A stretch of DNA of 43,502 nucleotides from a virus. A program made the position numbers and the translations under genes. Shown here in pieces: positions 8,268 through 43,502 of the stretch. Location of the stretch: IMG/VR virus record IMGVR_UViG_3300001750_000002, positions 1-43,502 of that record; one strand, 5' to 3'. Each line of letters starts with the position of its first letter. Positions within the stretch are counted from its first letter, which is position 1. Below the pieces are notes generated by a model. That model worked only from the letters and a program-made list of their open reading frames with translations, was not told the origin of the DNA and did no database searches.

Positions 8268-10516
8268 TGGCTATGATCCTGAAACAGTCGACGGCGGTGG
8301 ACGTGCTCATTGGTCCCTTTGTCGACATCACGAACGGCGCAACCGCGGAGACCGGTGAGACCCCGACCGTCAAACTGTCCAAGAACGGACAGACCCTTGC
8401 CGCCAAGAACGACGTGACGACGCCCGTTTCTGATGCCGACGGCTATTACAACTGCGAACTCGACGCGACCGATACGAATACGGTTGGCCTGCTGACTTTG
8501 ACGGTCGCCGCTAGCGCAACCGCACTGCCTGTCCGTCATGAGTTCCAGGTTCTCGAAGAGGCTATCTACGATGCACTCTACGGCGCGAGTGCGGCGGCTT
8601 TCGACGGTAATGCGGATGTCACAGTTGGGTCTATCGCGGCCAGCGCGATTACGGCGACCGCAATAGCTACCGACGCGATCACTGCGGCCAAAATAGCTGC
8701 AAATGCCATCGGGGCGAGTGAGCTCGCGACGGATGCAGTAGAGGAAATTGCCGATCAGGTATGGGATGAGGTTTTGACCGGCGCCACGCACAACGTCGTG
8801 AATTCTGCCGGCCGAAGGTTGCGGCAACTTGAAACGGGTATCGTGTTGCACTCAGGTACTCTAGATGCAGCGACATCGAATACAGCGGACCTGGAAACGG
8901 GTGCTGCCTCGACGGTTGATAAGTTCTATGACCATAATCTTCTCGTAACCACCGGCGGCACGGGTGCTGGACAAGCGCGCGTGATAGTTGAGTATGACGG
9001 TACGACAAACCAGCGCGCGACAGTCGCGCCGCCTTGGGCCGTTACACCTGACAACACCACGACTTACGATGTCGTCATCGGATACTGTCATGCGGAGACG
9101 AATTCGAAAACCGTAACGGTCGGACTGGTGGCTGCTGCTACCACGAGCACTGTAACGCTTGCTTCCAATGCATCGGCAGTTGATGATTTCTATAATAACG
9201 ATGTGCTGATAATCGATGCCGGAACGGGTGAGGGTCAAGCACGTATCGTAACGGACTATAACGGAACGACCAAGGTCGCGACGATCGCGCCGAACTGGAT
9301 TACTACGCCCGATACTACTTCCGAATACATCATCGAAGAGGCATTATGTGTCGCCGACGTTTTGAGTATCCAGGCTTCCGCGCTGGCATCGATAAACACC
9401 GAAGTGGACACTGCACTAACCGATATCGGTCTTGATCACTTGGTATCGGCGGCCGTCGTCGGTGCTGACGTCATCGATAATTCGATCATGGCGCGGTTAG
9501 TCTCGTCTTCGGCAACGGCCGATTGGGACAGCTTCGACAATACCAGCGACGCTCTTCAGGCGCTTCGGGACCGCGGCGACGCGGCCTGGACAACCGGTGC
9601 CGGCGGCAGCCCGCCGCATCTCCTTCAGAGCACCACGATCGCCACGCTCGCATCGCAGTCCAGTTTCACTTTGACGGCTGGATCTGCTGACGACAACGCC
9701 TATAACGGGGCGATTGCGGTCATCACCGATCAGGTTACTGCAGTTCAAAAAGCGGTCGGCACAGTCAGCGATTATGTCGGCAGCACTAGAACGATCACGC
9801 TCAGTGCGGATCCGGGCATCTACACGATGGCAGTTGGCGACACGATCGAGATAATGGCGGCGCTCGGGTCGGCCGGCAGCGCGCCAACCGCGGACCAGGT
9901 TGCCGATGCTGTCTGGGAGGAAGCCCAGGTCGACCACACCACCGCGGGCACGTTCGGCGAGATCGCCACGGAGATCGCCGCCGTCAAGATCGTGACCGAC
10001 GCGCTGCCCGATGGTGGTGCCTTGACCACGATCGGTGGCAATGTGGACGCCATCCTTGTCGACACGGGAACGACCATACCGGCGTCCCTGGCCACGATCG
10101 ACGGAAACGTGGACGCCATTCTTGTGGATACAGGCGTGAGCATCCCGGCGGGCATCGCAGCGCTTAACGATCTCTCGGCCGCTCAGGTGAATGCGGAGAT
10201 CGATACCGCGCTGGTGGATTACGATGCGGCGACCGGCGCCGAGGTTGCGGCGCTGAACGATCTTTCCGCAGCACAAGTGAACGCGGAAATGGTCGATGCT
10301 TTGAACGTCGATACCTATGCCGAGCCGACGGGCGTGCCGTCGACTACAGCATCGCTCGTGGACAAACTCGGGCACGTGCAGATGGCGTTGGTAAATCAGG
10401 TGACCGTCACCGCGACCAAGAAACAGTTCTTCGATGCGGGCGGCACAGCTGAGTTCGAGAAGGATCTGAGCGACGACGGTACGACTTATACCGAAACAGC
10501 GGTCAACGCGCCATGA
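8267..10516 (+). CDS. long tail-fibre-like protein with several internal repeat families
   Basis: 749 aa. Heptad-like run AITATAIATDAITAAKIAANAIGASELATDAV. About 55-aa repeats VDKFYDHNLLVTTGGTGAGQARVIVEYDGTTNQRATVAPPWAVTPDNTTTYDVV and VDDFYNNDVLIIDAGTGEGQARIVTDYNGTTKVATIAPNWITTPDTTSEYIIE. Tandem units IGGNVDAILVDTG/IDGNVDAILVDTG and ALNDLSAAQVNAE x2. Confidence 0.7.
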   Translation: MAMILKQSTAVDVLIGPFVDITNGATAETGETPTVKLSKNGQTLAAKNDVTTPVSDADGYYNCELDATDTNTVGLLTLTVAASATALPVRHEFQVLEEAIYDALYGASAAAFDGNADVTVGSIAASAITATAIATDAITAAKIAANAIGASELATDAVEEIADQVWDEVLTGATHNVVNSAGRRLRQLETGIVLHSGTLDAATSNTADLETGAASTVDKFYDHNLLVTTGGTGAGQARVIVEYDGTTNQRATVAPPWAVTPDNTTTYDVVIGYCHAETNSKTVTVGLVAAATTSTVTLASNASAVDDFYNNDVLIIDAGTGEGQARIVTDYNGTTKVATIAPNWITTPDTTSEYIIEEALCVADVLSIQASALASINTEVDTALTDIGLDHLVSAAVVGADVIDNSIMARLVSSSATADWDSFDNTSDALQALRDRGDAAWTTGAGGSPPHLLQSTTIATLASQSSFTLTAGSADDNAYNGAIAVITDQVTAVQKAVGTVSDYVGSTRTITLSADPGIYTMAVGDTIEIMAALGSAGSAPTADQVADAVWEEAQVDHTTAGTFGEIATEIAAVKIVTDALPDGGALTTIGGNVDAILVDTGTTIPASLATIDGNVDAILVDTGVSIPAGIAALNDLSAAQVNAEIDTALVDYDAATGAEVAALNDLSAAQVNAEMVDALNVDTYAEPTGVPSTTASLVDKLGHVQMALVNQVTVTATKKQFFDAGGTAEFEKDLSDDGTTYTETAVNAP

Positions 10517-12476: not shown

Positions 12477-13856
12477 TCATATATTTTCGAGGTAGGCCAC
12501 GAACGCGTCCTGCATCGACATCTTGTCGTGGACGCGCGAAAACTTGATCTCGTCGACCGTGTTGCGTGCCATGATGTGGTGCACGAACACGCCGTCGGCG
12601 TTCTGCTGGCCCTGTCGGGCGAGCCTACGGATAAGTTGGTCGTAATACTCGGCCGACCACGGCAGCGCGAATAGCGCCAGGTGATGACCGCCGGCCTGCA
12701 TGTTGAGCCCGTGACCGGCGGACGCGGGGTGTACGGCCATGATCGGATAATCGCCTGCGTTCCAGCGTTCGACATGCCGATCGGCTCTACCGTCCGGTAT
12801 TCCGGCGCCTAGATAGGGCAGATCAGGCCAACAGGTGCGCAGGACAGCCAGATCGGCTTTGAATTGGTAGCCGACCAGCAAGCGCTCGCCGCCGCCCAAG
12901 CCCTCTATCAGCTCGTGCAGCGCGTCGATCTTCTCACGGTGAAGTGTCTCGACGACTTCGCCATCCTCATAGATGAACCCTTGCGCGATTTGCTCGAGCT
13001 TGCTGGAGGCGACGGCTTGGTTGGCAGCCAGTACAATGTCGTTCTCACTCAACGGGGCAAATAGATGGCGTTCCATCTTGTCGTAAGCCGCACGCGCGGC
13101 TGCCGGCAGATCGACCCATATTTTGAGCGTTTCGGCATGCACGCTCGGCACTTCGGACGGGTCGACCGTGAACGATATTTTGGCGGCATCAGCGTTGAGA
13201 ATGTCCGCGCGCTCCGAGTGGATCGACCAATTGTAGCCGGCCCAATCGGTTTGCCAGAAATTCCGTGCGCGCCAAGCATAGAAGCTCTTGCCCCACAGTT
13301 CACCGTCGGTGAGCAGTTTCAAGGGCGTGAACTGGTCGAGCAAGCCGTTTGGCGCCGGCGTTCCCGTTAAACCCCATCGGTTCTTGAACCGCCCAATGAG
13401 TTTGAAGAGCGCCTTGGCGCGCTTGCCCGTGGGGTTTTTGAACCGGGATAACTCGTCAATTACGAGTAAGTCGAATATCGTATCGGCGCGCTCGAATTTC
13501 TCTAGCGCGCCACAGAGCCACACGACATTGTCGATCCCGCATACGACGATACCGTGACGTGTCGCGGCTAGATCGTACTCGCGCTTTGTCGGCGCGCCGG
13601 ACAGTACGGTAACAGGCAAACCAGTCAAATGTGCCCACTCGTCGACCTCTTTCGGCCACACGAGATTGCACACCCGTTTCGGGGCGATCACGAGCGCCTG
13701 CCGGATCTCGCCGGCATCGATCAGCTCCTTGATGGCGGTCATAGCGCATACGGTTTTGCCGCTCCCCATGCACATTACGGCCTGTACAACCGAGCTCTCA
13801 TACAAGCGATCGACGGCGCGGTTTTGGTACTCGTGCAGATCGGCGTATCCGCGCAT
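12477..13856 (-). CDS. SNF2-family (SF2) DNA helicase
   Basis: Walker A MCMGSGKT, DExx box LLVIDELS, WGLTGTPAPNG, and a C-terminal lobe with HPASAGHGLNMQ and RRLARQGQ. Confidence 0.85.
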   Translation of the reverse strand: MRGYADLHEYQNRAVDRLYESSVVQAVMCMGSGKTVCAMTAIKELIDAGEIRQALVIAPKRVCNLVWPKEVDEWAHLTGLPVTVLSGAPTKREYDLAATRHGIVVCGIDNVVWLCGALEKFERADTIFDLLVIDELSRFKNPTGKRAKALFKLIGRFKNRWGLTGTPAPNGLLDQFTPLKLLTDGELWGKSFYAWRARNFWQTDWAGYNWSIHSERADILNADAAKISFTVDPSEVPSVHAETLKIWVDLPAAARAAYDKMERHLFAPLSENDIVLAANQAVASSKLEQIAQGFIYEDGEVVETLHREKIDALHELIEGLGGGERLLVGYQFKADLAVLRTCWPDLPYLGAGIPDGRADRHVERWNAGDYPIMAVHPASAGHGLNMQAGGHHLALFALPWSAEYYDQLIRRLARQGQQNADGVFVHHIMARNTVDEIKFSRVHDKMSMQDAFVAYLENI

Positions 13857-14356
13857 TATACGTGCCTCCAGTTCGCGCGATAGATCACGCCGGTGATTGC
13901 ACCGCGGCTCACACCATACTGTTTAGCAAGTCGGGTTTGAGACATAGAGCGCGCGGCCCACAGACGGCGGATAGCGAGCACATCGACCTCAGTCAGCCGC
14001 GCACTCGCGTTCAACTCGCCGCATTGAGGACGTGTGCGCTTCTTATGCGCCATGTCGGCCATGTTTTCAGCATTCGTCGCTGCGAATAAATGAGCCGGCC
14101 GCACACAAGCTCGATTATCGCATCGATGACAGACAAGTTGGCCGTCAGGGATAGGCTCAATTTCAAGTTCATACGCGACACGGTGTGCTCGCACATTACG
14201 TCCGTTAAGCCAAAACTGGCCGTAGCCGGATCCGTCTAATCCGGTCTTCCATCCCCAACAGCCATGTTCAGCCTTGTTGACCTTCGACCAAAACCGTTCT
14301 GCGACCGTTAGCTTAGATGCATCTGTCATATCGGTGGCCTTAGCTGGTGAGCGCAT
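13856..14356 (-). CDS. HNH homing endonuclease (HNH_3-type) with C-terminal HTH
   Basis: Reads GCWGWKTGLDGSGYGQFWLNGRNVRAHRVAYELEIEPIPDGQLVCHRCDNRACVRPAHLFAATNAENM. The C-terminal SQTRLAKQYGVSRGAITGV is HTH-like. Its stop overlaps the SNF2 start (TAATG). Confidence 0.8.
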   Translation of the reverse strand: MRSPAKATDMTDASKLTVAERFWSKVNKAEHGCWGWKTGLDGSGYGQFWLNGRNVRAHRVAYELEIEPIPDGQLVCHRCDNRACVRPAHLFAATNAENMADMAHKKRTRPQCGELNASARLTEVDVLAIRRLWAARSMSQTRLAKQYGVSRGAITGVIYRANWRHV

Positions 14357-20465: not shown

Positions 20466-20740
20466 TAGAGGACTATCTCATAGCACGCATAAAGACGCTA
20501 GGCGGTACCGCTAAAAAAGTCACTTACAAAGGTTGTAGAGGCGCACCAGACCGCTTAGTTATACTTCCAGGTGGTCGCATCGTATTCGTTGAACTAAAGC
20601 GGCCTAAAGGTGGCCGCTTGAGCGAAGGGCAGCGCGTTGAGATAAGACTACTCAGCGGCTTAGGTGCCGAGGTTCATGTGTTAAGAACTCGAGAGGAGGT
20701 TGACGATGTGTTCGGACTGGATGAAAAAATTCAAGTCTAA
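20447..20740 (+). CDS. VRR-NUC domain nuclease
   Basis: GAPDRLVILPGGRIVFVELKRPKGGRLSEGQRVEIRLLSGLGAEVHV shows a PD...ExK core and matches the VRR-NUC pattern. 97 aa. Confidence 0.8.
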   Translation: MTLELSIEDYLIARIKTLGGTAKKVTYKGCRGAPDRLVILPGGRIVFVELKRPKGGRLSEGQRVEIRLLSGLGAEVHVLRTREEVDDVFGLDEKIQV

Positions 20741-21152
20741 TATCAACTTCGACGGACCGAGTGACTGTTGGCTGTGGACTGGAACCAAAGACCGCGACGG
20801 TTACGGCAAATTCCATGCCCCTAACGGCACAGGAGGCGCGCACCGCGCGGCCTTTGAGTTGTGGGAAGGGCCAATCCCAAAGGGCCTACATATCGACCAT
20901 CTATGCAGAGTGCCTAACTGTGTCAATCCTGCGCATATGGAGCCTGTCACTCCCGCAGAGAACTGTCGGCGCGGGTATCACGCTACTAAAACTCACTGTA
21001 AGCACGGCCATAAGTACACAGCCGATAACCTGCAGCGTAACAAGGCCGGTATACGCATGTGTAAAACTTGTAGCAGAGAACGTGCCAGGGCCTGGCATAA
21101 AAAGGATAAGCTCGAACGACAGCGCAGAGAACAAGAAAAGTACGGGCCATGA
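20706..21152 (+). CDS. HNH homing endonuclease (HNH_3-type)
   Basis: ATG 20706 follows GAGAGGAGG (20691-20699); the track start at 20700 is TTG. Reads SDCWLWTGTKDRDGYGKFHAPNGTGGAHRAAFELWEGPIPKGLHIDHLCRVPNCVNPAHMEPVTPAENCRRG. Its RBS and first 35 nt lie inside the VRR-NUC gene. Confidence 0.8.
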   Translation: MCSDWMKKFKSNINFDGPSDCWLWTGTKDRDGYGKFHAPNGTGGAHRAAFELWEGPIPKGLHIDHLCRVPNCVNPAHMEPVTPAENCRRGYHATKTHCKHGHKYTADNLQRNKAGIRMCKTCSRERARAWHKKDKLERQRREQEKYGP

Positions 21153-24679: not shown

Positions 24680-25116
24680 AGACGTGCACGGGTTGCGGCA
24701 CAACAAAAACAGTCGATCAGTACCACGCCGACAAGAGGCGTAAAGACGGTAAACTCGCGCGCTGTAAAGATTGCAGACGTATCGAAACGAACGCATACCG
24801 AAAAAGGGTTGGATACGACCGCATCAGATATCGACGTACCGCGCCGCAAGAACGCGAGCGGCATCTGATCAGAAAATACGGCGTCACTCAAGCCGATTAC
24901 GATCACATGCTCTCAGCCCAAGGGGGCGGCTGCGCCATATGTAGCCGAAAGCAAAATCACGCTCTGGACGTTGACCACTGTCACGCTACCGGTAATGTTC
25001 GAGGGTTGCTGTGCACAAACTGCAACCGTCTTCTAGGGCACGCTCACGATGACATTGCGCGCCTGATCGCCGCAGCGCGCTATCTTATTTCATCTCGTAA
25101 GGAGACGCGAAAATGA
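24676..25116 (+). CDS. endonuclease VII-like (T4 gp49-family) nuclease, probable free-standing homing endonuclease
   Basis: ATG 24676 (ATGA overlap with the MTase stop) is in frame with track ORF 24520-25116. N-terminal Zn ribbon CTGCG...CKDC. Core GGCAICSRKQNHALDVDHCHATGNVRGLLCTNCNRLLG. Confidence 0.8.
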   Translation: MKTCTGCGTTKTVDQYHADKRRKDGKLARCKDCRRIETNAYRKRVGYDRIRYRRTAPQERERHLIRKYGVTQADYDHMLSAQGGGCAICSRKQNHALDVDHCHATGNVRGLLCTNCNRLLGHAHDDIARLIAAARYLISSRKETRK

Positions 25117-26087
25117 CCGCGCTCGACAACGCTTTTCTCGATCGCTTTGCCGAGTTCGGCCCGGTGTCGAGAAACCTCAGCTGGCTGATCCGCCCCGCGC
25201 TGGTCGCGGGGCCCGGAAGAACATTAATTTGGGGGGATTTCAGCTCTATTGAGGCGCGCGTGCTGCCGTGGCTCGCGGCATCACCCGGCGGCGAGAAGGT
25301 GCTGGACGTGTTCCGCACAAACGACGCTGACCCGTCGCTGCCCGATATCTATGAGATCGAAGCCGGCAACATCTACAAATGCGATCCGAAGGAAATCGAC
25401 AAGGGACCGCGCCAGATCGGCAAGGTCGCCGTGCTGTCGCTCGGCTTCGGCGGCTCGGTCGGCGCGCTCGGTGCCATGGCGACCGGGTACGGTATCTATC
25501 TCGAGGACGATCTGAAACACGAGATCGTCGAGACCTGGCGCCAGTCGAACCCGTGGGCCCGGACATTCTGGGATGCCCTGTGGGAAGCCGCTCTGAACGC
25601 CTTGGAGAGCCCTGGAGCAGTCTTCCCAGCTGGGCGCGTCGCGTTCGTCTACGACTCCTCCTACATCCGCGGTACGCTGTTCTGCGCGCTGCCGTGCGGC
25701 CGGGTGCTGTCGTACCCGAAAATCCGGTGGGAGAAACGCGAGATCGAAGACAAGAAGACCGGCAAGACCGAGACGCGCACGCAGTTGGTTTACACCAAGG
25801 GTTACGGCCGCGCGGCGGCGTGGTTTGGCAAGTTCGCCGAGAACGTGACGCAGGCGACCGCCGGCTCGATCCTGCGCCGGACACTCGTACGGTTAAAACG
25901 GTTTGACGATGTCGTGGCGCACACGCATGACGAGATCGTACGCGAGACTGAAGATGATCCGGTCTGGATTGCGGCAGCTAAAAGCGCTCTGCGCGCTGGT
26001 ATGGAAGCAAACGACGATTGGGATGCCGGGCTGCCGCTCAAGGCGGAAGTCCTGGAGAACTGGTACTATACACAAAGCATTAAATAG
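25113..26087 (+). CDS. family-A DNA polymerase, C-terminal fragment (palm/fingers)
   Basis: Own ATG with an ATGA overlap to the endonuclease VII-like gene. Motif A LIWGDFSSIEARVL, motif B RQIGKVAVLSLGFGGSVGAL, motif C VVAHTHDEIVRE. 324 aa. Confidence 0.9.
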   Translation: MTALDNAFLDRFAEFGPVSRNLSWLIRPALVAGPGRTLIWGDFSSIEARVLPWLAASPGGEKVLDVFRTNDADPSLPDIYEIEAGNIYKCDPKEIDKGPRQIGKVAVLSLGFGGSVGALGAMATGYGIYLEDDLKHEIVETWRQSNPWARTFWDALWEAALNALESPGAVFPAGRVAFVYDSSYIRGTLFCALPCGRVLSYPKIRWEKREIEDKKTGKTETRTQLVYTKGYGRAAAWFGKFAENVTQATAGSILRRTLVRLKRFDDVVAHTHDEIVRETEDDPVWIAAAKSALRAGMEANDDWDAGLPLKAEVLENWYYTQSIK

Positions 26088-26101: not shown

Positions 26102-26581
26102 ATGCCTAGCTTAAAACAAGAATACCGCAGCACGTATGAATGTTGGGCCAACATGAAAACACGCTGCAATAACCCTAACTACGAAGCCTTCGAACGCTAC
26201 GGCGGACGTGGCATACGGGTCTGTGAGCGCTGGAACGCCAGCTTTGCGGCGTTCTTGGGAGACATGGGTCCGAAACCAGACGGTTTAACGATCGAGCGCG
26301 TCGATAACGACGGTAACTACACACCGGACAACTGTGAATGGGCCACACGGATAGCCCAAGCACGTAACCGGCGCTCGACACTGTACGCAACTGTCAACGG
26401 TGAAACGCTGTGTGCAAAAGACTGGATCGCTCGTCTCGACATATCGCCGAACGCTTTTTACACTCGCGCGCGCCGTATCGGCTGTCAGGCAGCGGTTGAG
26501 CACTATCAAGCGAAACCGAAATGGGCGCACTCACCCAGCCCGAACGAAAAAGGGATCGACCCTGGCAGCCGATCCCTTTAA
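26102..26581 (+). CDS. HNH-like endonuclease-family protein
   Basis: GRGIRVCERW...GLTIERVDNDGNYTPDNCEWATRIAQARNRR resembles the (I/V)(D/E)RIDNxxxYxPxNCRWAT..Q..N pattern of phage HNH-like proteins as I recall it. Confidence 0.55.
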   Translation: MPSLKQEYRSTYECWANMKTRCNNPNYEAFERYGGRGIRVCERWNASFAAFLGDMGPKPDGLTIERVDNDGNYTPDNCEWATRIAQARNRRSTLYATVNGETLCAKDWIARLDISPNAFYTRARRIGCQAAVEHYQAKPKWAHSPSPNEKGIDPGSRSL

Positions 26582-26646: not shown

Positions 26647-29049
26647 ATGACAGATAGCGCGCAACGGCTTGAAATGCAAGTCGTCACCGAACTGCGCCTG
26701 AAGCTCCTGGCCAACGGCTACACCCCTCTTCCGAACTACGACAAGCGGAATTTCCTGAAAGGCTGGCCGGCCGTCGAGGTCGACGAAGCCGCGATCGCGG
26801 CATGGGGGCGCAAGCATAAGTCGTTCGCGGCGACCGGCTTGCGCCTACAGGATGGGCTGGCGGTGATCGACATAGATATAGATGACACTATTGCTCAACG
26901 GCTGCTGGATGCATCCGGTAGTGTGCTTTATCGCTACGGGGCTGGCCATAAGGAAGCGCGTTTTATGCGTGCGTCCGAACTCTTCGGCCGGATCCATTCC
27001 CGGCGCTGGGTGCCTCCGAGCGAACCTTTGGACGGGCCGGCGCAAGGGATTGAGATCTTCGGCGGCCAATCGCCCCGACAGTTCGGCGCGTTCGGCGCGC
27101 ACACACGGCTCGACAACGGAGAGATACCGGTTGCCTACAACTGGGAAGCCGGCGATAGCCCGGAAACCGTCCACCTCGACGATCTGCCTCTGTTATCTAA
27201 ACAGGACTTTTTCGCTTTCATAGATAAAGCAGAGGCCATGCTGGAGGCCGAAGGCTGGACGCCAGTCTTGTGCAGCAAGATCGGCGAAAACGCGGCCGAG
27301 CGCGTTCATGACCTCGTCGGCGGCATGCTGTTCGAACTTAATACAGACGAGAACGTCGGGCTCGACGAGCTCCGAGACCGCGCCGGCACATCGGATCTCC
27401 GATGCGCCGCGTCGTTCATCGAGCAAGGTGCTGACAACCGAACGCGGTGCATCGTCGGGCAGACGCATGACGGTCAGCTCACTGTGTGGGATAGCGCGAC
27501 CGATGTGACGCATCTCGAAGTTACGCCGACGATCGAGGACATGATCGCCGAAATCGGCGTGTCGTTCGCCGCTTCGGCGCCGTCCGAGAGAACGCCAGTT
27601 GATGATGGCGACGATCTGCAGAGTGCCGCGACCAAGCTCGTGTGGCTCTATGCCTTCTGTCCCACGGCTGCCACCAAAAACGTGGTGCCGATCGACACGA
27701 CAGATATCGGGGCGGGCATGGCGTTATCGAACATGCGGATCAAATACCGTCCCTGGGGCGAGACCGTGCCGGCGAAGACGCCGCAAGGCAATGACACGAC
27801 CAAATTCCGCACACCGACCGATCTATGGGAGCTGTCGCGCGACCGGCTGTCCGTCGGCGGTCTGCGCATGCGGCCCGATATGCCGACGCCGATATATGAG
27901 GAGGACGGCGTGACGTGGGTGAACACATATCGACCGGTCGCGCATCCGGCCGGTGGCGATGTGTCGATCGGCATCGAGTTCATATCGCAGCTCGTTCCTG
28001 ACGATGTGGAACGGCACTGGTTCATGTCGTGGCTCGCCTGCAAGCTCCGGCGGCCGTGTGAGCCAGGGCCGGGCGTGATCATGGTCGCCGAGCAGTACGG
28101 CACCGGCCGCGCCACGTTCGCCGACCTGCTCGGGCGGCTGTTCGGCCGGCGCTACGTCAAGGCGATCAAGTTCGGCATGCTGACCGGGCAGGTCGGGCAG
28201 TCGCAATATAACGACTGGAGCGCGGACGCGTTGATCGTCGTGGTCAACGAGAGCTCCGAAGATCCGATCGGCGCCGGATCGTTCCGAACCAAATTGAACG
28301 CCTATGAGCATCTGAAAGAGCTGGTCGACCCTCGGCAATCCGAACATTTGATCGTGCGCAAAGGCGAGCCCAACTATATGGCGCCACGATACACGTCCTA
28401 TATCATCGCCACAAACCACCGGGACGCGCTGGTGCTGCCGGCCGACGACCGACGCCTGGCGGTGCTCACGAACGGCTCACAGCGCTCTCCGGCTTACTGG
28501 GAGGGTCTCAACGTCTGGATGGACGATCCAGCCAATGTCGGCGCGTTCGCGCGGTATCTGGACGTCTATGATGTGGGTGAGTACACGCCGCACCGACACG
28601 TGCCGATGTTCAAGGCGAAACACGACATGGCCTATTTGAGCGTGTCGGACATCGATCAGGCTGTGACCGATGCGATCGATGGGATGAAATCGGAACTGAC
28701 GACGCTCGACGCGATCGTGTCGTCGGCGCAGGCTCACTTGGTGCAGGGTGACTACGCCGCGCCGGCAAGCGGCGGGGCTCTCAGGAGAACCGCGCGACGA
28801 CGCCTATACCAGCTCCACCGATCGGAAGTGAAAGACGGGCGTATACGCATGCCGGACGGTCGCGCGCATCACGCTTGTGCAACGTCGCGAACGGCCGCGG
28901 TCAAATGGGCCAAGGCGTCATTTGAGGCTATAAAAACCGAGTTGGAAAAAGGCGCTGACGAGCCGAGATATCTCGCCCCAAAATCGAACGTTATCCCCAT
29001 CCCAAAAAGGGATGGGAATCGGGATGGGAAAAACGACGAGCAAAACTAA
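26647..29049 (+). CDS. bifunctional primase-polymerase / SF3 (D5/VirE-like) helicase
   Basis: ATG 26647 (MTDSAQRLEM...) follows GAAGGA and is in frame with track ORF 26521-29049. Prim-pol N-domain ...LKGWPAVEVD...GLRLQDGLAVIDIDIDD. P-loop region GVIMVAEQYGTGRATFADLLGRLFG. Walker B-like ALIVVVNES. Motif C-like YIIATNH...DDRRLAVL. Confidence 0.8.
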   Translation: MTDSAQRLEMQVVTELRLKLLANGYTPLPNYDKRNFLKGWPAVEVDEAAIAAWGRKHKSFAATGLRLQDGLAVIDIDIDDTIAQRLLDASGSVLYRYGAGHKEARFMRASELFGRIHSRRWVPPSEPLDGPAQGIEIFGGQSPRQFGAFGAHTRLDNGEIPVAYNWEAGDSPETVHLDDLPLLSKQDFFAFIDKAEAMLEAEGWTPVLCSKIGENAAERVHDLVGGMLFELNTDENVGLDELRDRAGTSDLRCAASFIEQGADNRTRCIVGQTHDGQLTVWDSATDVTHLEVTPTIEDMIAEIGVSFAASAPSERTPVDDGDDLQSAATKLVWLYAFCPTAATKNVVPIDTTDIGAGMALSNMRIKYRPWGETVPAKTPQGNDTTKFRTPTDLWELSRDRLSVGGLRMRPDMPTPIYEEDGVTWVNTYRPVAHPAGGDVSIGIEFISQLVPDDVERHWFMSWLACKLRRPCEPGPGVIMVAEQYGTGRATFADLLGRLFGRRYVKAIKFGMLTGQVGQSQYNDWSADALIVVVNESSEDPIGAGSFRTKLNAYEHLKELVDPRQSEHLIVRKGEPNYMAPRYTSYIIATNHRDALVLPADDRRLAVLTNGSQRSPAYWEGLNVWMDDPANVGAFARYLDVYDVGEYTPHRHVPMFKAKHDMAYLSVSDIDQAVTDAIDGMKSELTTLDAIVSSAQAHLVQGDYAAPASGGALRRTARRRLYQLHRSEVKDGRIRMPDGRAHHACATSRTAAVKWAKASFEAIKTELEKGADEPRYLAPKSNVIPIPKRDGNRDGKNDEQN

Positions 29050-29410
29050 ATACGCTTTATCCGTAAAGTAGCTATTTTACAAAACGCTAAGCACTGTATT
29101 TTTGTAAAAACCATCCCACATCCCAAAACCATACCAAAAACAAAAAAAGTGGGATGGGTTTAACCTATTGATTATACTGTGTTTTATATTACTCTATCCC
29201 ATATCCCATAAATATATAATTTTATTAAGGAGATATAAAATATAGGTAATGAGTAGTACTATTTTTTTCCTATAGCCTAAGAGGAATTTGTTGGGATGGG
29301 ATGGGATGGGGTGGGATGGGTAAAAATGATGGCCTTTAGCGGCCCTTTCGGGATGCCCGCGATGGCCGCGATGGCCGCGATTGTACAAGAGTTTGTGATG
29401 GGCTATGTTA
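28995..29410. repeat. AT-rich island with GGGATGG/CCATCCC iteron-like repeats (candidate replication origin and/or late-promoter control region)
   Basis: GGGATGG on the top strand at 29009, 29021, 29151, 29293, 29298, 29303 and 29313. CCATCCC at 28997 and 29111. ATCCCA half-sites at 29120, 29196 and 29203. GATGG cores at 29328, 29361, 29370 and 29397. TTTTACAAAA (29075-29084) / TTTTGTAAAA (29100-29109) inverted repeat. 29041-29280 is about 29% GC by hand count. Confidence 0.75.
29381..29409 (+). promoter_or_regulatory. candidate promoter for the late/structural operon
   Basis: TTGTAC (29381-29386), 17 nt, TATGTT (29404-29409). Same -10 hexamer as the 22501 candidate. Embedded among GATGG repeats. 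The first downstream ATG is at 29478, after AAGGAG. Confidence 0.3.
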
Positions 29411-29477
29411 AACGGGTCGGGAGACGTTTGAGCGTCTTGACCGACCCTAATTGGCAAACCTGTAAGGAGATCCGCCA

Positions 29478-29801
29478 ATGTCTGACGAAACTATCAAAAC
29501 CCCTTTCGGCGTTCAAGCGAGTGAAGCGACAATAGTCGATCTATTTGTGGTTCAGCTGGCCGCTGGTCGAGATCGTATTCTTACTGTGGAAGCCGCAACG
29601 GACATATATCAGGATGCAATGCTGTTGGCTCGTGTCAGAGAGGTGTTGATGTGCGGTCCGGCGAGTGAAAATATTGAATCTTTTGAGCATGTGATGCATT
29701 GGGGGAGGCTTTCGGGTTCACGGCCGGCACGTAGCAACGATACAGGTGACCAAAGCGATATGGATAGCGATTACGATATGGATCGTTACTCTGCGGTGTG
29801 A
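29478..29801 (+). CDS. hypothetical protein with acidic tail
   Basis: AAGGAG RBS. 107 aa. C-terminal DTGDQSDMDSDYDMDRY. Confidence 0.55.
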   Translation: MSDETIKTPFGVQASEATIVDLFVVQLAAGRDRILTVEAATDIYQDAMLLARVREVLMCGPASENIESFEHVMHWGRLSGSRPARSNDTGDQSDMDSDYDMDRYSAV

Positions 29802-29876
29802 CCGATTGTTGCGTCGAGATGCTCGGCTTGCTAGATATGAGATATCGACACGTGTAAATAAGGACATATCGGCGCT

Positions 29877-30182
29877 ATGGGCAATCCGATTACGTTGATC
29901 AAGAAAGGCGAAAGCCTGCCGTTCGTGTTCGACCGCGGCGGCGCGACGATCGCCGGATGGGTATGCACGATAAAGGTGGCCAAATACCCTGACGACACGC
30001 CGGCGGTGGACCGAGTGATCGTGCCGACGGGTGAGGAGTGGGACGGGTTTCTCACGCCCGCCGAGACGGCGGCTCTCGCCGCGACGGGTCTATGGCGGCT
30101 TCTGGGCGTGCTCACCAATGCGTCGACCGGAGAGCGCGAGAGCGTGCCGGTACGGTTCAACTTGGCGGAGGCCTGGGCGTAG
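29877..30182 (+). CDS. hypothetical protein
   Basis: 101 aa. The stop overlaps the GTG of the small terminase gene (TAGTG). Confidence 0.5.
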   Translation: MGNPITLIKKGESLPFVFDRGGATIAGWVCTIKVAKYPDDTPAVDRVIVPTGEEWDGFLTPAETAALAATGLWRLLGVLTNASTGERESVPVRFNLAEAWA

Positions 30183-30631
30183 TGGCCAAACCGTTCATAC
30201 TCACGCCGGCCAAGCGTAAGAAGTTCGAGAAGGTGTGCGAGCGGATCGCAGGCGGCGAGAGCTTGGCCAGCATAGGACAAACGGAGGGCCTGCCTTGTAA
30301 AGAGGCGATACTGTCATGGCTGCGTAGGGCAGACGGTGAAGATCGTACGTGGCTGGTTGGCCTTTACGCGCAAGCGCGAGAAGATCAAGCCGACCATTAT
30401 GCCGATGAAATCGTGACGATTGCCGACGACGATGACCGGGATTACGGGATCGATGACAACGGTAATGAAATCTTCAAGGGCGAGAACGTTCAGAGATCGC
30501 GACTTAGGGTCGACGCTCGGAAATGGGTTGCCGGTAAGCTCAAGCCTCGGAAGTACTCCGACAAGCTGGATTTGAACGTCCAGGGCGAGTTCACCGTCAA
30601 CATCGGGGGTAAGGATGCAGACTGCGCTTAG
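30182..30631 (+). CDS. terS: terminase small subunit
   Basis: GTG 30182 is in frame with track ORF 30038-30631. HTH-like SLASIGQTEGLPCKEAILSWL, then YAQAREDQADHYADEIVTIADD...VQRSRLRVDARKWVAGKLKPRKYSDK, a pattern I recognise from phage small terminases. Lies directly upstream of TerL. Confidence 0.75.
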   Translation: MAKPFILTPAKRKKFEKVCERIAGGESLASIGQTEGLPCKEAILSWLRRADGEDRTWLVGLYAQAREDQADHYADEIVTIADDDDRDYGIDDNGNEIFKGENVQRSRLRVDARKWVAGKLKPRKYSDKLDLNVQGEFTVNIGGKDADCA

Positions 30632-31961
30632 CGAAGAGTTTGCGCTGACCGCCAAACAGGAGGAAGCGCGCGATCTTTTCGCCAGTTCAGCCACGAATAT
30701 CCTGCTTTATGGCGGAGCGCGGTCCGCTAAGACTTTCGCCATCCTACGGAACATCGTGAACCGGGCGCTGATGGCGCCCGGTTCGCGTCACGCCGTGCTC
30801 CGCCATCGGTTCAGCCACGTCAAGTCATCGGTGGTCCTGGACACCTTCCCCAAGATGATGAATCTGTGCTTCCCAGGGTGTCAGTACGTTCTGAACAAAT
30901 CCGATTGGTACGTGACACTGCCGAACAAGAGCGAGGTCTGGTTCGGCGGGCTCGACGACAAGGAGCGGACCGAGAAGATCCTCGGCAATGAGTATGTCAC
31001 GATATTCCTCAACGAGTGTTCGCAGATCAGTCGCGAGGCGTTCTTGATCGTGCAGACCAGGCTTGCGCAGAAGTGTCACTACATGCGCGACGGACAGCGC
31101 CGTGAGATGCGGCTCAAGATGTTGCTCGATGAGAACCCGCCGTTGCGCGGGCATTGGACTTATGTCCTGTTCATCGACAAGAAGGATCCGGAGACCAAGC
31201 GCCCGCTCAAAGAGCCGCACGATTACGCTCACCTGCAGATGAACCCGGCTGATAACGCCGCTAATCTGCCCGCTGCGTATCTCAGAATGCTCGAGGGCAT
31301 GCCGAAGCGACAGCGTGACCGGTTCTACCTTGGCATGTTCGGTTCGGCCGCTGAGGGAGCGCTGTGGACGACTGAGGTCATAGAGAGCTCGAAGGTTGCG
31401 GAGCATCCGACGCTGATCCGGATAGTGATCGCGGTCGATCCGTCCGGCTCGACGGGTGAGCCGGAGACCACGAACGACGACATCGGCATCAAGGTGGTTG
31501 GCTTGGGCGTCGACGGTCTGGCTTATGTGCTCGAAGATCTCACGCTTAACGCGGCGCCGGCGGTATGGGGCAAGGTGGTCGCCGATGCCTATGCTCGGCA
31601 TGAGGCCGATCGGGTGATTGGCGAGGCGAACTACGGCGGCGCGATGGTCGAGTTTGTGATCCGGGCCGCCGATCCGAATATCTCGTACAAGATGGTGCAC
31701 GCGTCGCGTAGCAAGATGCTGCGCGCTGAGCCGGTGAGTGCGTTGCACGAGCAGGGTAAGATCAAGCTCGTTGGTGATTTTCCCGATCTCGAAGACGAGT
31801 TGCTCAACGCGACGACAATGGGCTATACCGGAGCGAGGTCGCCGAACCGGCTCGACGCGTTCGTGTTCGCCGTTACTGAGCTGTTCCCAGGCGTCGTCAA
31901 GCCGAAGCAGGACCAGGCGTCGCTTGTGGTGCCGAACCTGCGTAGGGTCGGAGCAAGATAA
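30615..31961 (+). CDS. terL: terminase large subunit
   Basis: Walker A-like LLYGGARSAKTF, Walker B-like TIFLNECS, and a nuclease-domain aspartate context VIAVDPSGS. 448 aa. Followed by the portal gene. Confidence 0.85.
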   Translation: MQTALSEEFALTAKQEEARDLFASSATNILLYGGARSAKTFAILRNIVNRALMAPGSRHAVLRHRFSHVKSSVVLDTFPKMMNLCFPGCQYVLNKSDWYVTLPNKSEVWFGGLDDKERTEKILGNEYVTIFLNECSQISREAFLIVQTRLAQKCHYMRDGQRREMRLKMLLDENPPLRGHWTYVLFIDKKDPETKRPLKEPHDYAHLQMNPADNAANLPAAYLRMLEGMPKRQRDRFYLGMFGSAAEGALWTTEVIESSKVAEHPTLIRIVIAVDPSGSTGEPETTNDDIGIKVVGLGVDGLAYVLEDLTLNAAPAVWGKVVADAYARHEADRVIGEANYGGAMVEFVIRAADPNISYKMVHASRSKMLRAEPVSALHEQGKIKLVGDFPDLEDELLNATTMGYTGARSPNRLDAFVFAVTELFPGVVKPKQDQASLVVPNLRRVGAR

Positions 31962-31964
31962 AAC

Positions 31965-34070
31965 ATGCCGCGCACCTTCACCGTCGAGACCAGTACACCA
32001 CCGGGCGAACTGCCCATGGAGAAGCTCGAACGCTTCAAGCTGGACATCATAAACGACGGTGAGGTCGTAGACGATCAGCGTGACATGGCCAACGAAGACA
32101 TGCGCTTCGTGAACGTCGGCGGCGGCATGTGGGAGGGTTTTCTGACCGACACGCCGGATGTGCCGGATCGGGTCAAGCTCGAGCTGGACACGATTTCCAA
32201 CCCGCTGCAGCGGTTCATCGGCGAGTGGAACCTGAACCGTGTGGGTGTCGAGTACAAGCCAAATGACGGTGTCGCGACCGACGACGACGCGGAGCTGTTG
32301 AACGGCATCTATCGGGCGAATTTCCGTGATCACTCTGGCGGCGTGGCGACCGACAACGCGGTCAAGGAAGTGGCGACATGCGGCTACGGCGCGTTCAAGC
32401 TTGCGACTGCATTCGACGATGACGGAGACCCGGAGAACGAAGACCAGCACGTCGAATGGCGGCCGATATACAACGCATACAACGCGGTCTATTGGGACCA
32501 GGCAGCGCAGCGGATCGACAAGCGCGACGCACGTCACTGTACGGTGCTGGCAGAGTTCAGTCGCGCCAGTTTCGAGCGTGAATGGCCCGACAACAACCCG
32601 TCGAGCGCTTATACGCCGAACAACCGCATGTTCGAGAACCTCAACACGCGACAGCGTGAAGTGATCTACGTGGCGACGCGCTACGAGATCGTCAAAGTCA
32701 AAGAAACTGTCTTTATTTACAATAACTTGGCGACCGAAACCGTTGAGGTCTACAGCAAGGACGATCACGAGCTGATCAAGGATGAACTGCGCGCCGATGA
32801 CGCTCGGGTGTTCCGCCGTGAGCGCAAGGTCGTGACGCAACGCGTCGAGAAAACCGTGTTCAGCGGGCTCGATATCCTCGAAAATACGCGCCGGATCGCC
32901 GGCAAGTTTATCCCGATCGTGCCGATATACGGCTATCACGCATTCGTCGACGGTACGGAGCGGTATCGGGGCATCGTGCGCAAGCTCAAGGACGCCGCGC
33001 GGCTGTTCAACATGCAGATGTCGCAGCTCGCCGAGAACGCAGCCGGCGCCGGCCAGGAAGTGCCGATATTCCTGCGCGAACAGGTCCAAAGCCCGGACAT
33101 TTCGGCAGCTTGGGCTGACAAGAACAACAAGGCTTATCTGGTTATCGATCCGGCGACCGATCAGGACGGCAATATAATTGCGCCAGGTCCGATCAGTTAC
33201 TCCAAGCCCGCAGCGCTGGACGAGAGCACGACGACGTTGCTCGGTATAGTGCCGAACTACATCAAGGATGTCAGCGGTTTCGAGGTTGGCGAAGCGATCA
33301 AGAAAGAGACCAGCGGTAAGGCCCTGCGCGCGATGATGAAGCGCGAGAACATGAACACGCAGGTGATTAACGACAACATCGCCAACGCGATCGAGTGGTC
33401 GGGCGAGATATTCCAGGGCATGGCCGCTGAGATCTACACCACGCAGCGCCTGGTTAAGACGCTGAAGCGCGACGGCACCGACGGCAGCGCCGACCTGCAG
33501 GAAACCGTGATCGACGAAGAGACCGGCACGCTGGTTCAGACAAACGACCTGCGCGGCAAGCGGTTCAAATCGTATTCCGATGTCGGCCCGCAGTATGACA
33601 GCATGCGTGAGGAGACGGTCGAGGACCTGAAAGGTATGTTGGAGATCCTGCCGACTGTGCAGGGCGGCGAGCGCTATATGCCGGTGCTCTTGTCCGTTCT
33701 CATGAACAACATTCACGGTGTCGGGCTCGATCCGATCAAAGATTTCAACCGGCAGCTCATGCTCGAGCAGGGCTTGGCTGAGCCGGAGACGCCCGAGGAA
33801 GAGAAAATGCTGCGGAACCTGCAACAGCAGGCGCAGCAGCCGAACGCACAGACCAAGCTTGTCGAGGCCGCGACCGCGCAGCAAGAGGCTGAAGCACGCA
33901 ATCTGGATGCGGCCAGCTTGCAGAAGGTCGCTGACGCCAATCTGAAGGACGCTCAGACAGTCGAGACGCTGTCAGATGTCGGCGTCAATAAGGCTAAGGT
34001 GGCAGTGCAGGCTGCGCAGACACGGGCGAAAGCTCGAGAGGGCCTGAACGGCAGCGCAAGGGTCAATTAG
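31965..34070 (+). CDS. portal protein (P22-like, long C-terminal helical region)
   Basis: 701 aa, directly after TerL. The Gln/Ala-rich helical C-terminus (...NLQQQAQQPNAQTKLVEAATAQQEAEARNLDAASLQKVADANLKDAQ...) is reminiscent of the P22 portal barrel. Neighbouring genes are clearly P22-like. Confidence 0.8.
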   Translation: MPRTFTVETSTPPGELPMEKLERFKLDIINDGEVVDDQRDMANEDMRFVNVGGGMWEGFLTDTPDVPDRVKLELDTISNPLQRFIGEWNLNRVGVEYKPNDGVATDDDAELLNGIYRANFRDHSGGVATDNAVKEVATCGYGAFKLATAFDDDGDPENEDQHVEWRPIYNAYNAVYWDQAAQRIDKRDARHCTVLAEFSRASFEREWPDNNPSSAYTPNNRMFENLNTRQREVIYVATRYEIVKVKETVFIYNNLATETVEVYSKDDHELIKDELRADDARVFRRERKVVTQRVEKTVFSGLDILENTRRIAGKFIPIVPIYGYHAFVDGTERYRGIVRKLKDAARLFNMQMSQLAENAAGAGQEVPIFLREQVQSPDISAAWADKNNKAYLVIDPATDQDGNIIAPGPISYSKPAALDESTTTLLGIVPNYIKDVSGFEVGEAIKKETSGKALRAMMKRENMNTQVINDNIANAIEWSGEIFQGMAAEIYTTQRLVKTLKRDGTDGSADLQETVIDEETGTLVQTNDLRGKRFKSYSDVGPQYDSMREETVEDLKGMLEILPTVQGGERYMPVLLSVLMNNIHGVGLDPIKDFNRQLMLEQGLAEPETPEEEKMLRNLQQQAQQPNAQTKLVEAATAQQEAEARNLDAASLQKVADANLKDAQTVETLSDVGVNKAKVAVQAAQTRAKAREGLNGSARVN

Positions 34071-42182: not shown

Positions 42183-43502
42183 TGGCTGATATCGTCCTCG
42201 ATTTCGCGACCAAGATCCGGAATAAACCGGTCAGCGACGGGTTTTTGCGGTCGCTCGACACCGCTCTATCGGCAACCGATCCGCGGTTGGGCGCGCGGAT
42301 CATCTCCGGCGGCCAGCCCCCGAAAGGGAAAGGTGGCCGCCGGACCGGCTCGACGCGTCACGACGTCGATAAAAGCGGACACGCCCACACCGGCGACCTG
42401 GTATTGACGATCGACGGCAAAGACGTGCTGCCGGGTGAGGATAAGCAGCTTTACGCCAGTTTTTTCCGCAACGCCGCGCCGTTTTTCCCCGGTATCGGCC
42501 ACTATAAGTGGGGCGTGCACGTCGGTAGCGGCACGACGGCCGCCTGGGGTCCGACCAAATCGAAACGCTCGCTTGATCCGGTATTCGCAGCGGCGATCCG
42601 GGACGGACGTACCGGCCGTAAACCCAAAGAGATCGCGCCAGGCCTTGTGGCCGATGCTACGCCGTCCGTGGCGCCAGGGAGTGCTGTTCCGGGGCCGAAA
42701 CCCAATCCGCGCGGTATTGCGCCGCGCGAAGCTGTAGCGTCGCCGCGCGAAGTTCCTCGGCAAGCCGTGGATGTGCGGCAACTGGTCGCGGATGTCACGA
42801 GTGCGTTCAATCTGCCGGAACCTGAGCTTCCATCGAATGTGACGGGCACGTTCGCGCCGCCACCAGTAGCCTCGTCGGGCGGCACTGCGATCGGAACTGG
42901 CGGTTTCGATATCCCGGCGCAAGACACTTTCATCACACCCGTGGGTGAGGGCGCTGTGCCTGGCCCTGTACCTTCACCTGTAGCGGCTGCCGAGGTCGAT
43001 CCCCTCAGCGGCCAACCGGATGGTCCGGTGGCGGTCGTTGCGGGTGTTTTCGATCCGACACAGTTTGGAGCCGTATTGATCCAAGAACCTGCTGCCGACA
43101 CCCCAGCGGCAGTAGTCGGAGACGGTATCGCATCTACCGTCCCCACCCCAGCGCCGGAAACCGCACTTGTACCCCCGGCGCCGGTGCCCGCTGCCGAAAC
43201 AACCGCCACCCCGGTCGCGGCAGCGGGCACGCCTATCGATCTCAGTCGGCCGCGTATCGATAACGCGGATGGTTCTTTTTCAACTGAGCGCACGATCACA
43301 ATTGACGAACAGACATCGGAAGGTCAGCGTTTTTTTAACATCCCGACCATTGTGAACGGACAGGAGTTGAGCGAAGAGGACGCTGTCGCGCTGTTCCGTG
43401 CCGGGCGAAACCCGGCAGTCGGTACGTTCGGCACGTTGAACGAAGCGTTACAGGCCGCGCAAGCACGATCAAACCGGATCGGCGAGCTTCGTGGTGCACC
43501 CG
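42182..43502 (+). CDS. large internal-virion / ejection protein, 5' part (continues as 1-2828); N-terminal putative LAS/M15-like zinc peptidase motif
   Basis: Hand translation: MADIVLDFATKIRNKPVSDGFLRSLDTALSATDPRLGARIISGGQPPKGKGGRRTGSTRHDVDKSGHAHTGDLVLTIDG...FFPGIGHYKWGVHVGSG. The His/Asp/His spacing is reminiscent of peptidase M15 (SxH..., ...D, GIGxY...H). Open to the window end. Confidence 0.8.
   Translation, partial: MADIVLDFATKIRNKPVSDGFLRSLDTALSATDPRLGARIISGGQPPKGKGGRRTGSTRHDVDKSGHAHTGDLVLTIDGKDVLPGEDKQLYASFFRNAAPFFPGIGHYKWGVHVGSGTTAAWGPTKSKRSLDPVFAAAIRDGRTGRKPKEIAPGLVADATPSVAPGSAVPGPKPNPRGIAPREAVASPREVPRQAVDVRQLVADVTSAFNLPEPELPSNVTGTFAPPPVASSGGTAIGTGGFDIPAQDTFITPVGEGAVPGPVPSPVAAAEVDPLSGQPDGPVAVVAGVFDPTQFGAVLIQEPAADTPAAVVGDGIASTVPTPAPETALVPPAPVPAAETTATPVAAAGTPIDLSRPRIDNADGSFSTERTITIDEQTSEGQRFFNIPTIVNGQELSEEDAVALFRAGRNPAVGTFGTLNEALQAAQARSNRIGELRGAP
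42339..43502. repeat. terminal direct repeat, copy 2 (identical to 1-1164)
   Basis: See copy 1. Confidence 0.95.

Follow-up and report, generated by a model that had tools for sequence, protein, structure and literature searches.

A candidate iteron-type replication origin overlapping the 3' end of a Prim-Pol primase-helicase gene in an uncultivated phage group

The virus record IMGVR_UViG_3300001750_000002 of IMG/VR, whose whole stretch of 43,502 nucleotides was analysed here and is called the window, carries a gene for an 800-residue primase-helicase that is followed by an A/T-rich island crowded with short repeats (iterons). Our analysis points to positions 28996-29320 as the replication origin of this phage, of the type in which iterons accompany a DNA-unwinding element, lying directly 3' of the gene of its initiator and overlapping it; we put the probability of this reading, which is drawn from sequence comparison, at roughly 0.75. 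An earlier note on this DNA had proposed an iteron-dependent origin beside an initiator-type primase-helicase, and the proposal gains support from the recurrence of the layout across a whole family of relatives, with nearly the same spacing and with a repeat word that is specific to each lineage.

A single cluster of exact repeats in the deepest GC trough

The true repeat unit is at least the 8-mer GGGATGGG, read in the reverse orientation as CCCATCCC. The 42.3-kb genome holds eight exact copies of it on both strands taken together, all of them inside the 325 bp of 28996-29320, where the number expected in 330 bp is 0.018 under the composition of the genome and 0.0025 under the local composition. 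The shorter word GGGATGG is present seven times on the + strand (29009, 29021, 29151, 29293, 29298, 29303 and 29313) and twice as CCATCCC (28997 and 29111), accompanied by three extra ATCCCA half-sites (29120, 29196 and 29203), four extra GATGG cores (29328, 29361, 29370 and 29397) and two occurrences of CGCGATGGC at 29358 and 29367. The counts and coordinates that the earlier note had given, from the nine 7-mers and the half-sites to the GATGG cores and the CGCGATGGC tandem, all proved exact on recount. Besides the eight exact copies, at least five degenerate ones were found.

The clustering of these copies was compared with the rest of the genome, where the island reached a repeat-cluster score of 48.1 against a maximum of 21.3 among 136 control windows, and a whole-genome k-mer cluster scan returned one cluster only of GGGATGGG or of any comparable repeat. 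When one mismatch is allowed the genome-wide count rises to 43, which is not unusual, and the signal therefore resides in the clustering of exact copies. The cluster is real and far beyond chance, and both its existence and its uniqueness in this genome are direct observations.

The same island stands out by composition. Its inner 250 bp (29041-29290) have a guanine-plus-cytosine (GC) content of 29.2%, compared with 58.3% for the genome; the value of about 29% previously ascribed to the whole of 28995-29410 holds for this inner part only, since the longer interval comes to 39.7%, and the island remains the sole deep GC trough, with the lowest-GC 200 bp of the genome (0.285) set well apart from the next lowest (0.405). 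The repeats reach from 53 nucleotides before to 271 nucleotides past the primase stop codon and are arranged, together with two adjoining features, as follows.

28996-29028: iteron group A, one reverse CCCATCCC followed by two forward copies, GGGATGGG and GGGATGGG, inside the last primase codons
29075-29109: A/T-only inverted repeat TTTTACAAAA-N15-TTTTGTAAAA, clade-specific
29110-29158: iteron group B, a reverse overlapping pair (29110-29117 and 29117-29124, one mismatch each), an A-rich spacer and a forward GGGATGGG at 29151-29158
29195-29210, - strand: left boundary pair, tandem reverse half-iterons, TATCCCA x 2.3 with a 7-bp period
29210-29291: A/T-rich core, putative DNA-unwinding element, 82 bp, 22% GC
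29292-29320, + strand: right array, a (TGGGA) x 5.8 pentamer tandem equal to five overlapping forward 8-mers
29352-29381, + strand: 9-bp tandem repeat GATGGCCGC x 3.3, which adjoins the candidate origin and may belong to it
29395-29402, + strand: outlying forward copy with one mismatch, GTGATGGG

The copies of group A spell the disordered tail of the primase, IPIPKRDGNRDG (model predicted local distance difference test, pLDDT, 51-63), and the pair CCCATCCC-AAAAA-GGGATGGG at 28996-29016, which had been described as straddling the last codons of the gene, was found inside the last 18 of them. The two 10-bp arms of the A/T inverted repeat (29075-29084 and 29100-29109) are a perfect match, again as first described. 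Group B can be read as two 16-nucleotide arms that are 88% complementary, and the right array also reads as three sites phased 10 bp apart (29291, 29301 and 29311).

Two further observations concern the right-hand side of the island. An open reading frame (ORF) of 79 amino acids, 29296-29535, which gene callers annotate in other samples, has its start within the iteron array and runs into the next gene; the GATGGCCGC tandem lies within it and would encode PAMAAMAA. We regard this ORF as doubtful as a real gene. Beyond the island, an imperfect strong hairpin, GGGTCGGGAGACG-TTTGAG-CGTCTTGACCGACCC, occupies 29414-29447 in the leader of the gene at 29478-29801 and has no T-run after it; its role may be that of a regulatory RNA structure or of a site for protein binding.

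One layout and many recognition words among relatives

Relatives were collected through the primase, for which about a hundred homologues were found in metagenomes; a single-protein query returned no close relatives in the viral or genome contig sets, and an alignment query was needed. The loci gathered in this way comprise 2 close contigs, 61 viral contigs, 78 metagenome contigs, two isolate records and one bacterial chromosome. They are referred to below by L-numbers, and offsets within them are counted from the primase stop codon.

The two closest relatives, L001 and L002, whose primases are 79% and 58% identical to that of the window, carry a homologous island in which the word has changed in concert at all positions, from GGGATGG to GGGTATGG in L001 and to a TACCC-type word in L002. 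The G-rich word of the window accordingly reads TACCCA / GGGTATGGGG in L001 and CTACCC / GGGT..GGG in L002. Both loci share with the window a reverse half-site pair followed by a TAAATATATAA-like sequence, and a core that ends in ...TTTTTT.CTATAG. The A/T inverted repeat and its loop CGCTnAGCAnTGTAT are kept in L001 (6247-6281), and in L002 the right half is kept and the position of the left arm falls within coding sequence. At least three copies of the GATGGCCGC tandem are also present in L001 (6489-6518, at the contig end), and because they are found there despite the differing iteron, this repeat does not co-vary with the iteron.

In distant relatives (about 30-45% identity) the sequence of the island can no longer be aligned and the design is the same. 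Directly past the primase stop lie the lowest-GC 200 bp of the roughly 10-kb locus in about 25 of 40 loci, and the 600 bp at the stop surpass every control window for clustered repeats in 20 of 38, where about 1.5 would be expected by chance. A strict automatic test, which asks for at least four exact copies of a 7-mer in both orientations, is passed by 38 of the 72 non-redundant loci. Across the family more than 30 distinct repeats of 7-9 bp were recovered, one per lineage, among them GGTGACA, GACTACA, GAGTACC, TGCAACA, GAGGACA, GGGCTCA, GAGGGACG, GTAGGTACG, GACACAAG, ACCCGGGT and GGGGGGAC; the copies of ACCCGGGT belong to the isolate Nostoc phage Nsp-JY18 (PP438410), which has the same layout and whose island lies at about 13.5-13.75 kb of that record.

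The common grammar, which like the turnover of its words is observed directly, begins on the side of the gene with copies at or inside the gene's 3' end and continues with a middle group that contains opposed copies; on the side of the core there follow two tandem reverse copies, the core itself and one to five forward copies. In almost every relative the tandem reverse pair immediately adjoins the core on its left, and the core measures 69-110 bp with a median of about 85 (21 loci). How closely the spacing can agree between unrelated words is illustrated by the offsets of L005 and of the window.

L005: 2, 12, 21, 67, 98, 145 and 153, then the core, then 248 and 261
Window: -53, -40, -28, 62, 69, 102, 147 and 154, then the core, then 244-264

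Group B is matched in L005 in position as well as in orientation (+67 and +98, compared with +62/+69 and +102 in the window). What is conserved among relatives is the layout and its spacing, not the sequence of the repeat, which is specific to the lineage, and an island recognisably homologous to that of the window is kept in L001 and L002. The 3' coding end carries iterons in L008, L017, L025, L028, L029 and L043 as well, and in other lineages they start directly after the stop.

The cores have no alignable common sequence, and TA steps are over-represented in them: 15 of the 21 contain TATATA, compared with 2.3 in shuffles, and 14 of the 21 contain TATAG, compared with 3.3. Near the right end of the core a semi-conserved block, CTATAG...CTNAGRRAA (29268-29287 in the window and about 7576-7600 in L002), recurs across unrelated iterons and might be a priming or loading site. 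L031 differs in form from the other iteron islands, with a long CCTGGGC-based tandem array of about 16 copies between +633 and +892 past the primase stop.

The linked primase-helicase, its neighbourhood and competing explanations

The protein encoded directly before the island matches DUF5906 (E 4e-10), as do 29 of 30 homologues, and this family is described as the P-loop domain of primase-helicases (Pfam). The Prim-Pol family PF09250 was matched by 8 of the 30 homologues, and a Pfam search of the same 30 gave no match to the Toprim families. A profile built from the 30 homologues and compared with all chains in the PDB retrieved only NrS-1 polymerase at E <= 0.01, with the helicase domain matching 6K9C/6LRB at E 6e-23. 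From this domain make-up, which is read directly from the matches except at the C terminus, the protein is an archaeo-eukaryotic Prim-Pol joined to a superfamily 3 (SF3) helicase and to a variable C-terminal domain that is modelled as a winged helix.

28639-28965, + strand: C-terminal domain of the primase-helicase, predicted winged helix and candidate iteron-recognition domain (AlphaFold2)

The AlphaFold2 model of these residues has a pLDDT of 90.5, a predicted template modelling score of 0.81 and the topology H-E-H-H-E-E, which is that of a winged helix, and in a Foldseek comparison with the PDB all top matches were winged-helix domains, the best at E 0.07 and none statistically significant. 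We consider it on balance probable that the primase's own C-terminal domain reads the repeats.

In the mechanism that we propose, the primase-helicase would bind the GGGATGGG repeats through its C-terminal winged helix, and oligomers would assemble on both flanks of the core, probably as two helicase rings, because the repeats point outward on either side of an 82-bp core rich in TA steps. The core would then melt, the SF3 helicase would load itself and the Prim-Pol would make the first primers for the phage DNA polymerase, and cooperative binding would be added by the further repeat groups on the gene side, including those within its 3' end. That the core melts and that replication starts at the island is what we infer from this arrangement, and the identity of the binding protein belongs with them, because the test of whether the domain tracks the repeat gave a mixed result.

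The last ~125 amino acids were the least conserved part of the protein, and pairs of homologues with different repeats had a mean identity of 0.23 there compared with 0.49 in the helicase core. Pairs sharing a repeat showed a winged-helix identity 0.10 above the prediction from core identity, and for pairs at middle distance the rank correlation was 0.23. The window and L001 agree with the hypothesis, having similar repeats and a near-identical putative recognition helix. An extra ORF of 76 amino acids was seen between the primase gene and the island in L019 and L022 (+1 to +230 past the stop).

Several observations weigh against reading the island as an origin bound by its neighbouring primase. 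The covariation between C-terminal domain and repeat is weak, since 160 of 2000 label permutations equalled or exceeded the observed value, which is not significant, and the pairs are phylogenetically non-independent. The C-terminal regions of L019 and L022 are 77% identical and one residue apart in the putative recognition helix, and their repeats differ (GCAACAA vs GACACAG). The winged helix is model-based, no Foldseek match reaching E 0.001 (best 0.07-0.1), and neither the origin-binding domain of P4 alpha (1KA8) nor the C-terminal domain of a SaPI (Staphylococcus aureus pathogenicity island) Rep was among the 50 best fold-search matches listed. About half of the more distant homologues lack a clear cluster, and Octadecabacter phage BD1 (Octadecabacter Antarctic BD virus 1, L066 4985-5052) has only a 68-bp terminator region followed by a convergent gene; because no repeat island follows its primase/polymerase gene, the BD1 origin must be elsewhere or of another form. 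Finally, the island of the window borders the packaging module, and by position alone it could be a packaging signal or a promoter. The genes concerned are listed here, every one of them on the + strand.

25113-26087, + strand: fragment of a family A DNA polymerase
26102-26581, + strand: HNH endonuclease (PHROG HNH, E 1e-44)
26647-29049, + strand: primase-helicase, 800 amino acids (P0001); the longest ORF begins at 26521 and the stop codon is 29047-29049
About 430 bp between the primase-helicase gene and the ORF at 29478: non-coding stretch with the island
29478-29801, + strand: ORF of unknown function
29877-30182, + strand: ORF of unknown function
Within 30038-30631 (called gene about 30182-30631), + strand: Sf6-like small terminase (PF20901)
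30615-31961, + strand: large terminase
31965-34070, + strand: P22-type portal

The polymerase fragment is separated from the primase gene by the HNH ORF 26102-26581, which looks like a homing-endonuclease insertion because the polymerase gene directly precedes the primase gene in L001 and L002; more HNH genes lie at 13856-14356 (- strand) and 20700-21152 (+ strand). The window itself consists of a 42,338-bp genome plus 1,164 bp that the assembly duplicated at both ends, and because these ends are identical (positions 1-1164 and 42339-43502) the contig represents a circular or circularly permuted assembly. The same phage is also contained in samples ERZ27237539 and SRR1313734. Searches of 28000-30600 for DNA similarity to known phage records found none, and the island showed neither a transfer RNA nor an Rfam match approaching any gathering score.

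To which of its neighbours the element is tied can be judged from the relatives. In at least 11 of them (L005-L008, L012, L013, L016-L018, L024 and L026) the next gene is convergent on the island and ends in a terminator, and Pfam detected no terminase in the 10 downstream ORFs of L005, L007, L010, L011 and L013, up to 3.7 kb from the stop. Which family the small downstream genes belong to depends on the lineage, and the window lacks all of them. The only constant partner is therefore the primase-helicase gene, and this linkage is itself a direct observation. A small convergent gene with the pattern MTIIDTT.Y..G.LRL.RHG.G.GGN..., on the - strand and ending at the island, was noted in L007, L008, L016, L019, L022 and L024, and a second small-gene family, M..REARI.MP..., occupies that place in L005, L010 and L011; neither family is present in the window.

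The element was also recovered from a bacterial chromosome. In L068, a 986-kb contig of a Rhizobiaceae metagenome-assembled genome (JAEPQK010000001.1), a primase homologue lies near a methyltransferase, a DUF87 ATPase, a helix-turn-helix gene and a resolvase, and positions 8482-8615 read GTGTTGCACTGTTG, 75 bp, GCAACACTGCAACAG, which amounts to two reverse and two forward copies of GCAACA and is a minimal version of the layout. No virion or packaging gene was found in the 6 kb fetched on each side of this island, and the sequence suggests that L068 is a non-phage integrative element with the same replicon.

Among the competing explanations, transcriptional control survives best and is nonetheless distinctly unlikely. 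The repeats would here be operators through which a phage regulator controls a late promoter, located in the A/T core and driving the genes from 29478 onward. In the window the island does separate the replication genes from those for packaging and structure; all of these genes lie on the + strand, and some promoter must serve them. The cores contain TATA-like strings; and transcription often goes with origin firing, so that both roles could coexist. However, promoter and terminator consensus scans of the island region returned nothing over shuffle expectation, and 28700-29800 contains no + strand site of the sigma-70 type, the sole match being on the - strand and below the 1.7 expected from shuffles. 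The string TTGTAC-17-TATGTT at 29381-29409, formerly put forward as a candidate late promoter, is indeed present in the sequence, but it fails the standard sigma-70 consensus scan and fits only 3 of the 6 positions of the -35 hexamer. The late-gene operator is also disfavoured because the element tracks the primase gene even where the next gene is convergent and terminator-ended, or where, as in the chromosomal island, virion and packaging genes are absent from the 6-kb flanks; the primase-helicase gene is always adjacent and the small downstream genes vary. For these reasons the earlier suggestion of operator sites for a late-gene regulator finds no support.

That the repeats serve some other protein or purpose as a binding array, for instance a partition or centromere-like site, copy control by handcuffing or a host-factor site, is very improbable. 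Repeats alone do not identify their binder, the repeat switch between L019 and L022 comes with little change in the primase C terminus, and conserved small genes of unknown function adjoin the island in some lineages. Against this, no partition ATPase or DNA-binding partner is consistently linked, the neighbours varying and being absent from the window, and a partition site does not require outward-facing pairs spaced by a fixed TA-rich core of about 85 bp. Nor are DnaA boxes enriched: with up to one mismatch to TTATCCACA, 3 were counted in 13 kb of islands (25 loci) compared with 25 in 252 kb outside them, and a DnaA-dependent origin was rejected on this count.

Little probability is likewise left for a packaging signal, in which the repeats would be the pac site of the downstream Sf6-like small terminase. 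That gene lies about 0.9 kb 3' of the island, and the next 1-3 kb hold both terminases and the P22-type portal; the circular redundancy of the assembly is what headful packaging predicts, and in headful-packaging phages the small terminase recognises DNA that is repeated or bent. The pac site of P22- and Sf6-type phages, however, lies inside the small terminase gene, and the cluster studied here stays fixed to the primase stop even in the five relatives without a terminase in the 10 downstream ORFs and in the chromosomal island without a packaging gene in the 6 kb on each side, while inverted pairs around an unwinding core are the grammar of an origin.

The least probable explanation is a structural element that works through G-quadruplexes or a large pRN1-like stem-loop and needs no sequence-specific recognition of the repeats, for although the only two canonical G-quadruplex motifs of the genome (four runs of at least three G, loops of 1-7 nucleotides) both lie in the island on the + strand (29009-29028 and 29293-29320) and the pRN1 origin is a 100-nucleotide stem-loop 3' of a similar gene, most relatives' repeats (GGTGACA, GACTACA, GAGTACC and others) cannot form a G-quadruplex, 29185-29330 folded as a single strand does no better than shuffled sequence (z = -1.35, 18 of 200 shuffles fold as well), and sequence, not shape, is what appears to be recognised because all stems would use the same word. 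The G-quadruplex as the function was rejected since the repeats of most relatives are not G-rich, and the pRN1-like stem-loop because the fold matches shuffles; the two motifs may be a simple by-product of the iteron sequence, and in this phage they could stabilise the opened origin.

Implications and comparison with known systems

The candidate origin in 28996-29320 offers a testable starting point for a widespread group of uncultivated phages whose replication has not been studied, and Nostoc phage Nsp-JY18, as an isolate with the same layout, is usable for experiments. More than 30 natural repeat specificities on one scaffold provide a model for DNA reading by winged-helix initiators and for orthogonal replicons. 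For annotation, the lowest-GC repeat cluster directly past a Prim-Pol/SF3 gene becomes callable as an origin, and ORFs called inside such a cluster, like the one of 79 amino acids at 29296-29535, need caution.

A bolder idea, which we offer as speculation and think rather unlikely, is that the origin and the specificity domain of the initiator form a portable cassette of fixed geometry, whose word would have been rewritten more than 30 times in phages and chromosomal islands and in which CTATAG...CTNAGRRAA would be the start site of the Prim-Pol. The geometry of such a cassette places outward-facing tandem pairs on either side of a TA-step core that measures about 85 bp, with two more groups upstream. 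If the idea were true, rewriting of the word could stop co-infecting relatives from firing each other's origins, and the 'stem-loop' origins of pRN1 and BIP-1 and the iteron origins of SaPIs would be two views of one ancient design.

Among characterised proteins, NrS-1 polymerase (gp28) shares a homologous helicase domain and a Prim-Pol N terminus with the protein of the window, and both are thought to act at a specific origin. The origin proposed for NrS-1 contains two copies of the primase recognition sequence TTTGGTTA, which is absent from both strands of the present genome, and the NrS-1 papers used for this comparison describe no iteron array.

Phage P4, whose ori and crr had served as the analogy in the earlier note, matches in function only. 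Its alpha protein unites in one polypeptide a primase, an SF3 helicase and, at the C terminus, an origin-binding winged helix with short repeats as its target (PMC4234260, PMC2777425). The P4 primase is, however, of the DnaG/Toprim type, whereas a Prim-Pol is present here. P4 also needs two separate repeat regions, ori and crr, in contrast to the single repeat cluster of this genome, which forms no such pair, and the origin of a SaPI Rep is the closer counterpart.

In protein architecture, as far as the modelled C terminus allows, the closest match appears to be ORF904 of pRN1, which likewise combines a Prim-Pol, an SF3 helicase and a C-terminal winged helix, the last being a predicted one in the window (PMC4234260, PMC2777425). 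The pRN1 origin lies within 166 bp after this gene, and the same has been proposed for Bordetella phage BIP-1 (PMC4234260). Both pRN1 and the window have about 100 bp bounded by inverted sequences, with the origin, or candidate origin, placed 3' of the gene. The pRN1 element is a stem-loop of about 100 nucleotides without iterons, whereas here the two orientations together hold 9-14 copies of one short word, and the predicted stem-loop has no unusual stability.

By analogy, the closest functional match appears to be the Rep/PriRep origin of SaPIs. These origins carry 6-12 iterons directly past the rep ORF, with a central AT-rich region and at least two opposed iterons on each side, and their reader is the winged helix of an SF3 helicase that loads itself without a separate loader (PMC9371898). 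In SaPI5 the initiator is fused to a primase; the C-terminal winged helix of SaPI initiators gives element-specific recognition of iterons that differ between elements, and the structures of PriRep5 and Rep1 have been solved (PMC9371898). All of the cis features recur in the window, where eight exact and at least five degenerate copies accompany an AT-rich core with opposed copies on each side, and the candidate origin stands directly 3' of the initiator ORF there and in the relatives. The proteins resemble each other in the SF3 helicase (DUF5906, with the match to the NrS-1 helicase); the winged helix is a predicted one here, with a best fold E of 0.07, and no sequence homology to SaPI Reps was detected, the profile matching only NrS-1 polymerase in the PDB. 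The hosts differ as well, since SaPIs are satellites in Gram-positive bacteria and the present family is found in tailed phages and at least one chromosomal island (the recorded host of one isolate is the cyanobacterium Nostoc, and one island is in a Rhizobiaceae genome). The SaPI repeats are 5-6 bp long compared with 7-9 bp here, where extra repeat groups also extend into the coding sequence of the initiator itself. The element is not a new system and belongs to a known kind, an iteron-flanked unwinding element beside the gene of a self-loading primase-helicase; what is new is the family-wide picture of one fixed geometry served by more than 30 recognition words.

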